Program-made: the position numbers
From: a virus
Taxonomy: Duplodnaviria; Heunggongvirae; Uroviricota; Caudoviricetes
DNA: 40,079 nt
Reading direction: 5' to 3' (one strand)
Virus record (IMG/VR): IMGVR_UViG_2721755728_000013
Shown here: positions 32,501 to 38,500 of the stretch, in pieces
Layout of the letters: each line of letters opens with the position of its first letter
Numbering within the stretch: position 1 is the first letter of the stretch

Positions 32501-35500
32501 ATTTCGACGCATCAAATTTTGACGGGTCAGATTTTGATGCGTCAGATTTTGACGGGTCAGAATCTGACAGTTGAGAAAATGCCGCTGCCTGAAGCTTCGC
32601 AACGTTAAGCTGATAAACATTCGACGCATTGCGGTTACCCTGGCGACGCGCCTTACGCGTTAACCAGCCTTCTGCTTCCAGCCGTGCGATAGCCGTCCTG
32701 ACGGTACTCATCCCCGCGCCAATCTGACGGGCAATAGTTTCAATTGATGGCCAGCACACACCTTCGTCATTACTGAAATCAGCCAGGCGGGCCATAATTG
32801 CCACGCTGGATAATTTCATGCCTGATGCAGCGCAACCATCCCATACATAGCCGGTTAATTTAGTGCTCATGACCGACCTCTATTTCCCTGAATTTACGAC
32901 GAAACTGTTCGAGCGGGCTGAAGCACTCATGCTCATAGCCTTCGCGGAGGTAGATAACTCGTTGTGTTTCCGGCTCCCAACGAATGACTCTGACGGGTAC
33001 TCCGTAGTGATCTTTGAACCAGCGGTTAACTTGTCGCAAAGGACTGTCTCCTTCTGCCGGTTAAAATCACCCACAGCCCACTCTGCAAAGCTGTGGGTTA
33101 CAATTACCCTGCCACCTGGTACATTAACTGCATAGCAATACTCCACCTTCGCTTTTCCACCCGGTACAGGAAGCGCAATCAGTTGCGAGCGACGGTAGTG
33201 TGTTGTTAAACTGTTCATGCGTTAGTTTCTCCACAGTCACGACACGCCACGGCGCCCGGAGCTGCACACTCGCGGGCGTCATTACTTTCTGAAATGCAAA
33301 AAATTTTGTAGACCAGTGCTGCATGCTCCTGCAGCTTCGAAATTGAGAGGTACAGCTCGTCGTTAATTGCTGTCTTCTCATGCGGTTCCACTACACCGTC
33401 TTCAATTGCTGAACGAATCTGTTTTGAATAACTGCCGATCTGTTCAATGACCTCCAGCAGGCGTTGGTTGATATCGGCGTTGTCCACATCCTCGACATCA
33501 GGAAGAGACACAAAGACGCCATTTGCAGACTGCGCCACAGCGTCAGCAATGAAGTGAGTTCCACCAGCACGTTGCAAAATCATTGCCCATCCCAGCGGGA
33601 AAATCTGATCGCCATCGGCACGAAGGCGGTTAAATAATGCGTTCTCTGTTACATCCAGCCAGTCAGCAGCTTCAGCGTACCCCCCCGGCAACGCTGCGAT
33701 AGTTTTTCTGACAGCTTTCACGTACCACTCAGGCTGTTTTTCTACTTTCCAGTGATGCTTACCCACGGTTCACCTCCTGTTCCTGTGGTTTAAACCCATT
33801 CTGGTTTTGGCTAGATTGAAAACGTGCCGGATAAAGAATCTGCATTTCGCTGACTTCACCCTTAAAAAAATTGGCTAAACGTTCTGCAAGCTCGATAGAT
33901 GGAATCTGCTCCAGCCTCTCAATACGACTCAACGTCGCTGGATTGACTTGAACACCCGCAGCAACATGCTGCAAAGTGAAACCATGCGCCTTACGCACAT
34001 TTCGTAATGGTGATTGCATACGTCCTCCAAATATTGCGCGTTATGCATGTTATTTCACGCAATTATTTTGCGCAAGTTGATTTGCTTATCACGCAATAAA
34101 GAAATGTAATAAACGCATGAACATAGGAAACCGAGTCAGACAACTTCGCCAAGCGAAGAACATGAAAATCGCCGATCTCGCTGAAGCGATAGGAGTAGAT
34201 GCGGCGAACATCTCGCGCTTAGAAACGGGTAAGCAAAAACAATTTACCGAACAAACACTGAGTAATATTGCCAAGAGCTTAGGTGTTGATATTGCTGATC
34301 TCTTTACCTCTGCCCACAAAAGTAATACTGTATATAAAAACAGTAATAATGAGGATGTTGCGCAGGTGAAGGATGTGTTCCGTATTGAAATGCTGGATAT
34401 CAGTGCCAGTGCGGGAAATGGCCTTATCCAGGGCGGTGATGTCATTGATGTGATTCATGCCATCGAATACAGAACTGATAATGCTGTATCAATGTTCGGC
34501 GGACGACCAGCCAATCACATCAAAGTTATCAACGTTCGTGGGGACAGTATGTGTCCAACCATTGAGCCAGGAGATCTCATCTTCGTTGATGTCAGCATCA
34601 ATCAGTTTGATGGTGATGGTATATATGTCTTTGGTTTTGATGACAAAATATACGTTAAAAGACTTCAAATGATTCCTGACAAACTGCTGGTGATTTCTGA
34701 TAACCAGATTTACCGTGAATGGGGAATTACTAGCGAAAACGAACACCGATTCATGGTCTTTGGAAAGGTCTTAATCAGTCAGTCGCAAACCCTTAAGAGA
34801 CATAATTAACCTCAATATCCCATCCATCGGCCACCGAAAGGTGGCTTTTTATTACCTATAAATTTGCATATCACGCAAATATCACTTGCATATCTCGCAA
34901 TTTAATTTTATCTTTTGTTCCAGACCAACTACAGGATTACAACAAAATCTGGTTGCAACACGGTGCATGTGTCGTAAGCAGTCAGTAAATGTCAAAAACG
35001 AACAGGCAGGACGCCCACGAAGTAGCCGCCTGGGGCATATGAAGTCCAGGATGATTCGTTAGCAACAAAAAAGCGCCCTACAGGACGCTTAGCTCTTTAA
35101 CAATCTGGATATCCACAACAGTAGTAATCTACAGATTGCCGTTAAGTTTTCTGGACAACTCCTCAATGGATGGAGGCGATACGTAATCCGGATTTTTATT
35201 CATCAGAAACTTATTTTCACAGTGGAGGCACCTGCTTTTATGAAAAAGCTCATCTTCGCTAACCGGGAATGGTTGAAGTATCGATACTATCTTTTGTCCA
35301 AAACATTTTGGGCAAAGATGCATGGTTATGCTGCCACCGTTCACGATTACCTCCTTCGAGTATACAAAAGTACCCGACTCAAGTTGGTTAAGGATATAGC
35401 CTTCCGTCTGAGCCTCAAAGTTTTCGAATTCTGCAATTTTAGCTTTGAGAGAAGCATTTATTTCTTGATAAGAGCCCACCAGTTCAACGAGAGACACGCA

Positions 35501-38500
35501 TTCGCGCTGAATAGACGCAAGCTTTGAGTTCAGCTCACCAATAGCCGCATTTACTTCAGCTTGAGTTTTTGCCTCGTTCATTAGTTTTGCAATCTGGGCT
35601 GTTTCACGAATAGCCGTCATTGCTGCCGTTAATTCAGCGATCACATTGAATACTCTTATTGTTGTTGGGGATATCCAGATTAACCGAATCCTTGTTGTTG
35701 GGGAATAACCAGGTCCACCTCGCCTGATGTGGCTAAAAGCAGGCACATAACAGCTAAGTATTTTCAACCAGAGAGAATCCTTAGCGTTGTGGTGAATGCG
35801 GCTCAGCGCACGCGGGTTAAGGTTGAGGCTGACAGTCGACCTTCTGTGGATACCCACCCGCCTGGTGTGCAACCTTCGCCAGGCACCGGGAGGCACCCGG
35901 CACCACAACTTTATGCTGTGTGTAGTCCTGGCGGTACCAGTTTGTACCCTTGCTTCCGGCTGGTACCGTCCTTTTTTGCAAAACAGAGAAGAGCATCACC
36001 GGACGACGGGCTCATAACCCAATCCATCCGGGCGGCTGCCACCGCAGGTGTTCTTCTCTGTTTTGTGGAGAAACCAACCGACCTTGCAGGGTCGATATGA
36101 TGAGGAGCAGCAAAATGGCTAGCGAACGCAGTACTGATGTGCAGGCATTTATCGGGGAGCTGGACGGCGGCGTATTTGAAACCAAAATCGGCGCAGTTCT
36201 CAGTGAGGTCGCTTCCGGTGTGATGAACACGAAAACCAAAGGGAAGGTCTCACTCAATCTGGAAATCGAACCGTTTGATGAGAACCGTGTGAAAATCAAA
36301 CACAAACTCTCATATGTTCGCCCAACTAACCGCGGGAAAATTTCCGAAGAAGACACCACCGAAACGCCGATGTATGTCAATCGCGGTGGTCGCCTGACTA
36401 TTCTGCAGGAAGACCAGGGACAATTACTGACTCTTGCCGGTGAACCTGACGGAAAACTCCGCGCAGCAGGTCGTTAATATCGTTCGTAATAAACTGATTA
36501 TTTATCTCATCACTGAATATCTTTATATAGTGAGGACTTATTATGTCTCAGAACTTAGACGCAACCGCAATTAATCAAATCCATGCCCTTATTTCTGCTC
36601 AGGGTGTTAATGAAATTATCAGTAAGATTGGTGCCGATGCTGTGGCATTGCCTGAGAATTTCCGCATTCATGATCTGGAAAAATTTAATTTAAATCGCTT
36701 CCGTTTCCGTGGTGCACTTTCCACTGCCAGCATCGATGATTTTACCCGTTATTCTAAAGATCTTGCAGATGAAGGCACCCGCTGCTTTATCGATGCCGAT
36801 AATATGCGTGCCGTCAGTGTGCTTAACCTGGGTACTATTGATGAGCCAGGTCACGCAGATAACACTGCCACTCTCAAACTGAAAAAGACAGCACCGTTCT
36901 CTGCTCTGTTGTCTGTTAACGGCGAGCGTAACTCCCAGAAGTCACTGGCAGAATGGATCGAAGACTGGGCCGACTACCTTGTGGGCTTTGATGCTAATGG
37001 TGACGCCATTCAAGCAACAAAAGCGGCTGCGGCAGTCCGTAAAATCACGATTGAAGCAAACCAGACCGCTGATTTTGAAGATAATGACTTCAGCGGCAAA
37101 CGCTCCCTGATGGAGTCTGTCGAAGCGAAGACCAAAGACATTATGCCAGTGGCATTTGAATTTAAATGCGTTCCGTTTGAAGGTCTGAAAGAACGTCCGT
37201 TTAAATTACGCCTCAGCATTATCACTGGCGATCGTCCTGTACTGGTTCTGCGCATTATTCAGCTGGAAGCGGTGCAGGAAGAAATGGCTAACGAATTTCG
37301 TGATCTGCTTGTTGAGAAATTCAAAGACAGCAAAGTAGAAACCTTTATTGGTACTTTCACCGCCTGATTTCATTACTGCAAATGCCCCTGCGGGGGCATT
37401 TATGGAAACGTAATTAACTCAATAATCACCGGATGGTGAGGGCTTCCTTTTACCAGAATTCAGCGCGGTGCAGTGCATATACGTGGAGAACAAAATGTCA
37501 TTTATTAAAACTTTTTCCGGGAAGCATTTTTATTATGACAAGATAAATAAAGACGACATCGATATTAACGATATCGCGGTTTCCCTTTCAAATATCTGTC
37601 GCTTTGCCGGTCATCTTTCGCACTTCTACAGCGTCGCCCAACATGCGGTTCTTTGCAGCCAGCTGGTGCCGCAGGAATTTGCTTTTGAAGCGTTAATGCA
37701 TGATGCAACAGAAGCGTATTGCCAGGACATTCCCGCACCACTGAAACGCCTTCTTCCTGACTATAAACGGATGGAAGAAAAAATAGACGCCGTAATCCGT
37801 GAGAAATACGGGTTACCCCCAGTTATGAGTACACCCGTGAAATATGCCGATCTCATCATGCTGGCAACCGAACGCCGCGATCTCGGGCTTGATGATGGCT
37901 CTTTCTGGCCTGTACTGGAAGGCATCCCGGCAACAGAAATGTTCAACGTGATTCCACTGGCACCGGGTCATGCCTACGGGATGTTTATGGAACGTTTTAA
38001 CGATTTATCGGAGTTACGCAAATGCGCATGAATGTTTTCGAAATGGAAGGGTTTCTTCGCGGGAAATGTGTACCGCGAGATCTGAAAGTGAACGAAACAA
38101 ATGCTGAGTACCTGTTACGTAAATTCGACGCGCTTGAAGCTAAATGTGCGGCACTGGAAAACAAAATAATACCAGTGTCAGCTGAACTGCCACCAGCAAA
38201 TGAAAGTGTTCTGTTATTTGATGCTAATGGAGAAGGCTGGCTGATTGGCTGGCGTTCTCTCTGGTACACCTGGGGACAAAAAGAAACCGGAGAATGGCAG
38301 TGGACATTTCAGGTCGGGGACCTTGAAAACGTCAATATCACTCACTGGGCAGTAATGCCAAAAGCACCGGAGGCTGGAGCATAATGACCACATTTACCAA
38401 TAAAGAACTGATTAAAGAAATCAAAGAACGAATCAGCAGCCTAGAGGTTCGAGACGATATTGAGCGCCGTGCTTATGAAATCGCACTCGTATCTCTGGAA

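Follow-up and report, generated by a model that had tools for sequence, protein, structure and literature searches.

A divergent Rip1-family gene in the sieB slot of a lambdoid prophage

The virus record IMGVR_UViG_2721755728_000013 of IMG/VR, 40,079 nucleotides (nt) long and referred to here in its entirety as the window, is a lambdoid prophage in its complete form, in which int lies at the right end and the genes for Nu1 (22462–23007), gpA, and the portal (18761–20362) are of the lambda type. A minus-strand gene in the interval from cI to the early-left genes encodes a product that almost certainly belongs to the Rip1 (ring interacting pore 1) family. Both neighbors, cI (34117–34809) and a yfdP-like early-left gene (36097/36115–36477), are encoded on the plus strand. 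A sequence-only reading of the window had described the gene as stand-alone cargo on the strand opposite to these two, and it is indeed the sole opposite-strand gene between cI/pL and the early-left genes.

The gene is an intact open reading frame (ORF). It had been placed at 35129–35620 with a product of 163 amino acids (aa), and a minus-strand ORF is present there with an ATG at 35620 that yields this length, but the ATG is an internal codon, the ninth. Eight codons upstream of it begins an N-terminus, M-IAELSAAM, which is conserved at the protein level among homologues of many genera, and the same start is seen in homologues from Salmonella, Citrobacter, Trabulsiella, Symbiopectobacterium, Enterobacter, Cronobacter, and Arsenophonus. 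Because homologues start eight codons earlier and an AAGAG motif is found 8 nt upstream, the GTG at 35644–35642 is taken as the most likely start codon, with a predicted product of 171 aa. The ORF had also been called markedly AT-rich. Its G+C content of 42.8%, compared to 52.3% for the window, does fall in the lowest 11% of equal-sized windows, but cI is equally low at 42.0%, so that the contrast exists only with the right flank (56%).

No characterized family had been recognized for the product, a view that has been overtaken by the description of Rip1 (Patel et al., Nature 2026; PDB 9oox, released 2026-02-04). When a profile of 59 homologues is compared with PDB sequences, the sole significant match is chain L of 9oox, which is Rip1 (E = 1.7e-24, 89.6 bits, query residues 5–152), and pairwise BLASTP of the window protein with this chain gives 27% identity over 148 residues (E = 2e-11). 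Structural comparison points to the same entry. In a Foldseek search of the PDB, only 9oox_L (E = 4.5e-7) and 9oox_M (E = 7.7e-7) are found at E ≤ 0.001, with a probability of 1.00 and template modeling scores by target of 0.53 and 0.74, respectively, and the predicted model of the window protein has the long N-terminal helices and the beta-rich C-terminal domain of the Rip1 fold. In PHROGs the protein matches phrog_1244 (E = 2.4e-58), which is labeled as of unknown function and confirms the phage family, not the function. Searches of Pfam, NCBIfam, and PADLOC return nothing significant for the window protein, only sub-threshold coiled-coil noise.

The family is large and widely distributed. 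By tblastn, identical copies of the protein are found in Escherichia phages PhiR49_1 and PhiR29_1, copies with 48% identity in Klebsiella phages, and relatives with about 30% identity in HK620 (hkaP), HK629/HK630, and the Pseudomonas Mu-like phages DMS3, JBD30, D3112, and MP38. Clustered at 50% identity, the family has 3141 representatives with E ≤ 1e-3, so that the ORF is more than a chance reading frame; with E ≤ 1e-10 there are 1510. A scan of viral contigs returned almost only near-identical copies, and diverse homologues came from a genome scan. Among 5426 complete Escherichia coli genomes, 686 carry the cassette at a coverage of at least 80%, and the gene is always annotated there as a hypothetical protein.

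The architecture of the protein agrees with what had been read from the sequence, a coiled-coil followed by a four-cysteine domain. The AlphaFold2 model (predicted local distance difference test score 91.7) consists of two long N-terminal helices, at residues 2–24 and 28–79, followed by a beta-rich domain that holds the cysteines. The motif CPKC-N24-CLHC is present as described earlier, with CPKC at 35314–35303, CLHC at 35230–35219, and 24 residues between them. In the alignment of the 59 homologues these four cysteines and L123 are invariant, while Y83, V94, and Y95 are at least 90% conserved; all eight residues (C111, C114, C139, C142, Y83, V94, Y95, and L123) are invariant in the window protein, HK446 gp37, HK620 HkaP, and JBD30 gp30. 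The N-terminal helices are predicted confidently and have a moderate hydrophobic moment of 0.27–0.44 over residues 1–54. Their mean hydrophobicity is approximately 0, and no transmembrane segment is predicted. The features of the locus are collected in Table 1.

Table 1. Coordinates in the window of the rip1-family gene and the features around it (CDS, coding sequence; UTR, untranslated region).
Feature	Coordinates	Strand	Basis and remarks
oL: two 15-nt operator-like repeats TTGCATATCACGCAA, at 34864 and 34886	34864–34900	plus	Direct repeat; overlap the presumed pL
Intrinsic-terminator-like hairpin AAGCGTCCTGTAGGGCGCTT followed by TTTTTGTTGCT	35061–35090	minus	Predicted 3′ end of the rip1 mRNA; kept downstream of homologues in other genera
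GCTCTTTAACAA, candidate nutL boxA	35092–35103	plus (pL-sense)	About 190 nt downstream of the presumed pL, just past the terminator hairpin; sole exact copy in the window
Inverted repeat, left arm	35102–35127	unstranded	Directly past the stop codon, in the 3′ UTR
rip1-family CDS	35129–35644	minus	171 aa from the most likely start, GTG 35644, to the stop TAG 35131–35129; ORF list, N-termini of homologues, profile match to PDB 9oox
C-terminal beta-rich Cys4 zinc-ribbon-like domain, residues 84–150	35195–35395	minus	Model and invariant residues; counterpart of the ring-contacting half of Rip1
N-terminal helical half, residues 1–79	35408–35644	minus	AlphaFold2 model; counterpart of the half called amphipathic and pore-forming in Rip1 (review PMC13434031)
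Conserved leader of about 100 nt, GCCTGCTTTTAGCCACATCAGGCGAGGTGG...CCCCAACAACAA twice...AAGAG	35645–35744	minus	Upstream comparison of 24 loci, blastn, alignment
Shine-Dalgarno-like AAGAG	35653–35657	minus	8 nt upstream of GTG 35644–35642; read from the sequence; GAG kept in the leader alignment
Inverted repeat, right arm	35656–35681	unstranded	Repeat search; in the 5′ UTR of the minus-strand mRNA

The gene occupies a slot whose borders can be drawn by comparison with related phages. To its left, the two copies of TTGCATATCACGCAA at oL recur at oR between cI and cro, at 34082 and in weaker form at 34034, and because of this recurrence the repeats are plausibly cI operators. By blastn against relatives, a conserved block lies downstream of pL at 34994–35060, reaching 35108 in SfIV, and is followed by a variable slot that runs from 35061/35109 to 35660/35714. 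Beyond the slot, and before the yfdP-like gene, a conserved GC-rich (56%) block extends from 35715 to 36091; it is kept in SfV, SfII, and SfIV, and at 77% identity in ST64B. All four of these phages have both flanks in common with the window and hold different cargo in the slot: orf33 in SfV, gp36 in SfII, an unrelated gp36 (144 aa, minus strand) in SfIV, and a short unannotated stretch in ST64B. The rip1-family gene is therefore exchangeable.

Within the GC-rich block, Rfam gives a match to STnc100 on the plus strand at 35756–35979 (40.3 bits compared to a gathering score of 47; E = 1.9e-6). STnc100 and PasD are prophage small RNAs (bioRxiv 10.64898/2026.05.13.724894). The block also contains a 24-nt inverted repeat, with its arms at 35979–36002 and 36042–36065. 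As for the cargo of SfIV, gp36 (1835–2269, minus strand, of the SfIV stretch compared) has no PADLOC match, and in some E. coli genomes the feature lying under the match to this cargo is annotated as “ECs1072 family phage-associated protein.” Because of the slot that they occupy, SfIV gp36 and the ECs1072-family genes are candidate uncharacterized defense genes.

At each locus examined, the Rip1 homologue is a lone gene opposite to its neighbors. In HK446, rip1 (gp37) lies between N and a ral-like gene/cIII on the strand opposite to pL, and hkaP of HK620, annotated as “putative superinfection exclusion protein,” is placed in the same way. A Citrobacter prophage carries its homologue between xis and cI, and an Arsenophonus prophage between genes for lysis and those for terminase; it is the sole opposite-strand gene in each.

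It had been suggested that the gene sits in the rexAB/sieB position. It occupies the sieB slot together with the sieB expression module, with rip1 as the cargo, and its leader shares homology with what precedes sieB in lambda. In blastn the leader matches lambda 34394–34464, and lambda sieB starts at 34482 on the strand opposite to N and ral. The leader is common to lambda sieB, HK620 hkaP, HK446 rip1, the sieB of a Hafnia phage, and SfIV gp36. In an upstream comparison of 24 loci, about 100 nt are kept before rip1 homologues of many genera, with unrelated sequence beyond. The leader follows the pattern GCCTG-CTTTTAGCCACATCAGGCGAGGTGG...CCCCAACAACAA twice, and its first 35 nt or so are near-identical across phages whose downstream proteins are unrelated or less than 30% identical. 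The repeats noticed earlier upstream of the gene are direct repeats at 35653–35670 and 35686–35703. A structured leader RNA, of a pseudoknot or riboswitch-like kind with GCCUG/CAGGC and CCAC/GUGG pairings, was considered and rejected: RNAalifold on 15 leaders gives −6.4 kcal/mol, the pairs being invariant and covariation practically absent. Rfam has no match on the leader strand.

The homology of the leader to the sequence upstream of lambda sieB is the main, if indirect, reason to expect that the gene has its own promoter active in the lysogen; by homology, the window protein is probably made there. The 3′ end of the cassette is likewise conserved. The downstream hairpin with a U-tract that had been proposed is found by a terminator scan at 35090–35071 of the minus strand, where a run of T follows the hairpin. 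Around the gene, a 26-nt inverted repeat with 85% complementarity brackets the ORF exactly; it scores 16, compared to a mean of 9.8 and a maximum of 13 in shuffled sequences, none of 100 of which reach this score. The repeat is kept around most enterobacterial rip1 cassettes, including those of Citrobacter, Scandinavium, Symbiopectobacterium, Edwardsiella, Buttiauxella, and Kosakonia, and in SfIV a related pair brackets the different cargo. In the predicted mRNA of 684 nt, for which a start near 35744 is predicted, the arms of the repeat pair with each other in both the minimum free energy and the centroid folds. The repeat may serve in such end-pairing of the RNA, as a site for RNase III, or as a site of recombination or protein binding.

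On the opposite strand, just past the hairpin, GCTCTTTAACAA is an exact match to the core of the rrn-type boxA (consensus TGCTCTTTAACAA). Its reverse complement, GTTAAAGAGC, is kept at the 3′ ends of the cassettes, the conservation of which is probably explained by this candidate boxA. No N-like gene is found between pL and GCTCTTTAACAA, and no matching copy downstream of cro. The fold of the pL leader (34916–35135) has a z-score of −0.32, with no sign of special structure. A 31-codon ORF, MCRKQSVNVKNEQAGRPRSSRLGHMKSRMIR, with an arginine-rich tail is present on the plus strand at 34968–35063, in the stretch from pL to the boxA-like element, and shares sequence with the block at 34994–35060 that is conserved across immunity types; it could encode a small peptide or be merely a conserved RNA or DNA element.

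These elements hint that the cargo could be modulated upon induction, through transcription reading on from pL and through the formation of RNA duplexes. A more elaborate proposal, which must be regarded as doubtful, is that the elements framing the slot, namely a leader of the sieB type, the inverted repeat of 26 nt, and the terminator with its opposite-strand boxA, form a portable expression-and-silencing cassette for defense cargo. The cargo mRNA would be produced in the lysogen and stabilized by pairing of its ends, and at induction an antiterminated antisense pL transcript would form a long RNA duplex with it and turn Rip1 off, so that the terminase and portal rings of the prophage itself would trigger no suicide. 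If true, such a silencing cassette would be the built-in equivalent of anti-Tab, a protein discussed below.

The sequence-only reading had guessed at a defense function. The homology to Rip1, an antiphage defense that prophages encode as a single protein, bears this guess out, as seen in the profile match, the Foldseek result, and a review (PMC13434031). The passages of this review that deal with Patel et al. (Nature 651:1060, 2026) describe a protein that guards against superinfection and is non-toxic alone, with infected cells rounding up. As described there, escape mutations fall in the portal for phages of Pseudomonas and within the small terminase for those of E. coli, and cryo-electron microscopy reveals 12 Rip1 monomers around an 11-mer small terminase ring, a stoichiometry also given in PMC12908700. 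In the same passages, the N-terminal half of Rip1 is an amphipathic helix and the C-terminal half touches the ring, while Rip1 complexes make liposomes leak dye and punch holes in cells. According to the review, homologues are common across Proteobacteria, mainly in prophages. Short mentions of Rip1 in PMC13601566 and PMC12908700 agree with this account.

By analogy, a sequence of events can be proposed for the window gene. In the lysogen, the protein would be made from its own sieB-type leader while cI represses pL, and alone it would be soluble and harmless. Once the late genes of a heterologous phage are expressed, one of its oligomeric ring proteins, either small terminase or portal, would be bound by the C-terminal beta/zinc-ribbon domain. 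The phage ring would then template a Rip1 ring around itself, and the N-terminal amphipathic helices would form a pore through the inner membrane, so that the cell would collapse before virions mature and the infection would be aborted. This mechanism is proposed by homology of sequence and predicted fold, together with the invariant residues, the intact gene, and its HK446-like placement. The full functional reading of the gene as a lysogen-expressed, ring-triggered, pore-forming abortive defense is considered likely. The small terminase of the resident prophage is of the Nu1 type, unlike the T6 small terminase in 9oox, and this difference may be relevant to the avoidance of self-triggering.

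Several points weigh against this functional reading. Identity to the experimentally studied Rip1 proteins is only 24–28%, and therefore neither the specificity for a trigger nor even activity can be carried over with certainty. The mechanistic details of Rip1 are drawn from the review PMC13434031 and the title of the PDB entry, and zinc binding by the window protein is suggested by its four invariant cysteines. No sigma-70 consensus promoter is found in 34700–36300, and a relaxed scan of the 300 nt upstream is also empty. Finally, an entry in the supplementary gene table of PMC11445458 states of JBD30 gene 30 (164 aa) that it “blocks phage genome injection,” with credit to Tsao et al. 2018; this attribution is older than the Rip1 work and differs from a pore mechanism.

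This last point bears on a rival explanation, namely that the protein confers classical superinfection exclusion by an early block, such as one of DNA injection, rather than through a late-acting pore. The annotation of HK620 HkaP and the use of the sieB slot and leader would fit such a function. However, the HkaP annotation is based on position only, and later studies of the family, both structural and genetic, indicate that its members sense late proteins (small terminase and portal) and form pores. The window protein also has no predicted transmembrane segment, whereas injection blockers are usually located in the envelope. Exclusion of this kind is accordingly given a small probability. 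SieB itself was ruled out as a family, as no SieB model is matched in Pfam, PHROGs, or NCBIfam and only the non-coding leader is common with lambda sieB. The Fc02 exclusion genes, and likewise Tab, turned out to be different proteins.

It is very unlikely that the gene instead serves the lytic cycle of its own phage, for example in lysis timing or as a packaging accessory, or that it is an inert relic, in either case with no role in host defense. A lytic role is suggested by the homologues in Arsenophonus and Pseudomonas phages, which lie among lysis and packaging genes, and by the Rip1 partners named in the review passages, which are packaging proteins. Yet the gene is always opposite to the lytic operons and has its own terminator, and it is dispensable, since close relatives have other cargo in the slot. 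A relic is argued against by the intact ORF and by its conservation in many genera and in the complete E. coli genomes counted above.

The DksA/TraR-like regulator that had been offered as a hypothesis, with the coiled-coil entering the secondary channel of RNA polymerase, is effectively refuted by the Rip1 match and has a probability close to negligible: there is no zf-dskA_traR match in Pfam even at E ≤ 10 and no DksA or TraR among the top 50 Foldseek matches, DksA appears at rank 53 over 62 residues with 8% identity like dozens of generic coiled-coil matches, the predicted inter-helix loop (residues 25–27, AKT) is without the acidic tip motif, and the beta-rich C-terminal domain matches Rip1 instead.

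Elsewhere in the window, two further genes stand out. A 365-aa ORF at 27032–28129 (plus strand, opposite to the surrounding genes) encodes a full-length Gram-negative porin (Pfam Porin_1, E = 1.8e-156) and is a second moron, lying between AT-rich stretches (39% G+C at 26001–27000). Also opposite in strand, and likely a moron as well, is the gene for a DUF1398 protein (24124–24657, plus strand, E = 2.9e-46), which lies in the 1 kb of the window that is richest in AT (37% G+C).

The assignment to the Rip1 family has practical consequences. Copies now listed as “hypothetical protein” can be relabeled as antiphage genes of the Rip1 family, with relevance to the prediction of phage host range and to phage therapy against lysogens of E. 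coli, Shigella, and Salmonella. A natural variant about 27% identical to the studied proteins is also useful for asking how the C-terminal domain encodes trigger specificity, both as to small terminase or portal and as to the phages they come from. The lambda sieB slot with its conserved leader is a home of interchangeable defense cargo (sieB, rip1, and SfIV gp36/ECs1072-like genes) and is therefore a useful place to mine for more defense genes.

Among known systems, the Chlamydia protein CT398 and E. coli DksA are architectural look-alikes only, with no sequence relationship, high root-mean-square deviations or short alignments, and unrelated functions. The Tab/anti-Tab system of the Pseudomonas phage JBD26, which has its own promoter, resembles the window gene in being a minus-strand prophage moron. 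It uses the inter-terminase slot, where sister phages carry rip1 homologues, and acts late, on virion morphogenesis. However, Tab is an unrelated protein of 83 aa that blocks tail assembly through the tape measure protein and has a dedicated partner in anti-Tab, unlike the window gene, alongside which no partner gene is evident.

SieB is a prophage-expressed abortive or exclusion function. The sieB genes of lambda and P22 have the slot, the orientation against pL, and a homologous upstream leader in common with the window gene, but the proteins are unrelated. The P22 sieB/sas system is mentioned in PMC7067206. HkaP of HK620, also found in HK629/HK630, is closer, with 28% identity by alignment and 29% by tblastn, an opposite-strand slot between N and cIII, and the leader, but it belongs to a separate subfamily. 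JBD30 gp30, D3112 orf25, and the DMS3 homologue are homologous over their full length at about 28% identity, have the invariant four cysteines, and are stand-alone opposite-strand prophage morons; in the passages of PMC13434031 on Pseudomonas phages, escapers lead to the portal, not to the small terminase.

The most similar system is Rip1 of HK446 (gp37; PDB 9oox, in complex with the T6 small terminase), which matches the window protein in size (164 aa compared to 171), two-part architecture, fold, and four cysteines, and which likewise stands alone on the opposite strand of the pL operon, in the position of sieB, with a related upstream leader. The two differ in sequence, with 24–27% identity, and in setting. 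HK446 has N between pL and rip1, while the window gene follows pL directly, past the boxA-like element, and the HK446 cassette is without the 3′ arm of the inverted repeat present in the window. The window gene is a divergent and very common relative of Rip1, for which the family, the mechanism, the distribution in prophages, and the HK446 placement are already published; only the conserved frame of the slot retains some novelty.

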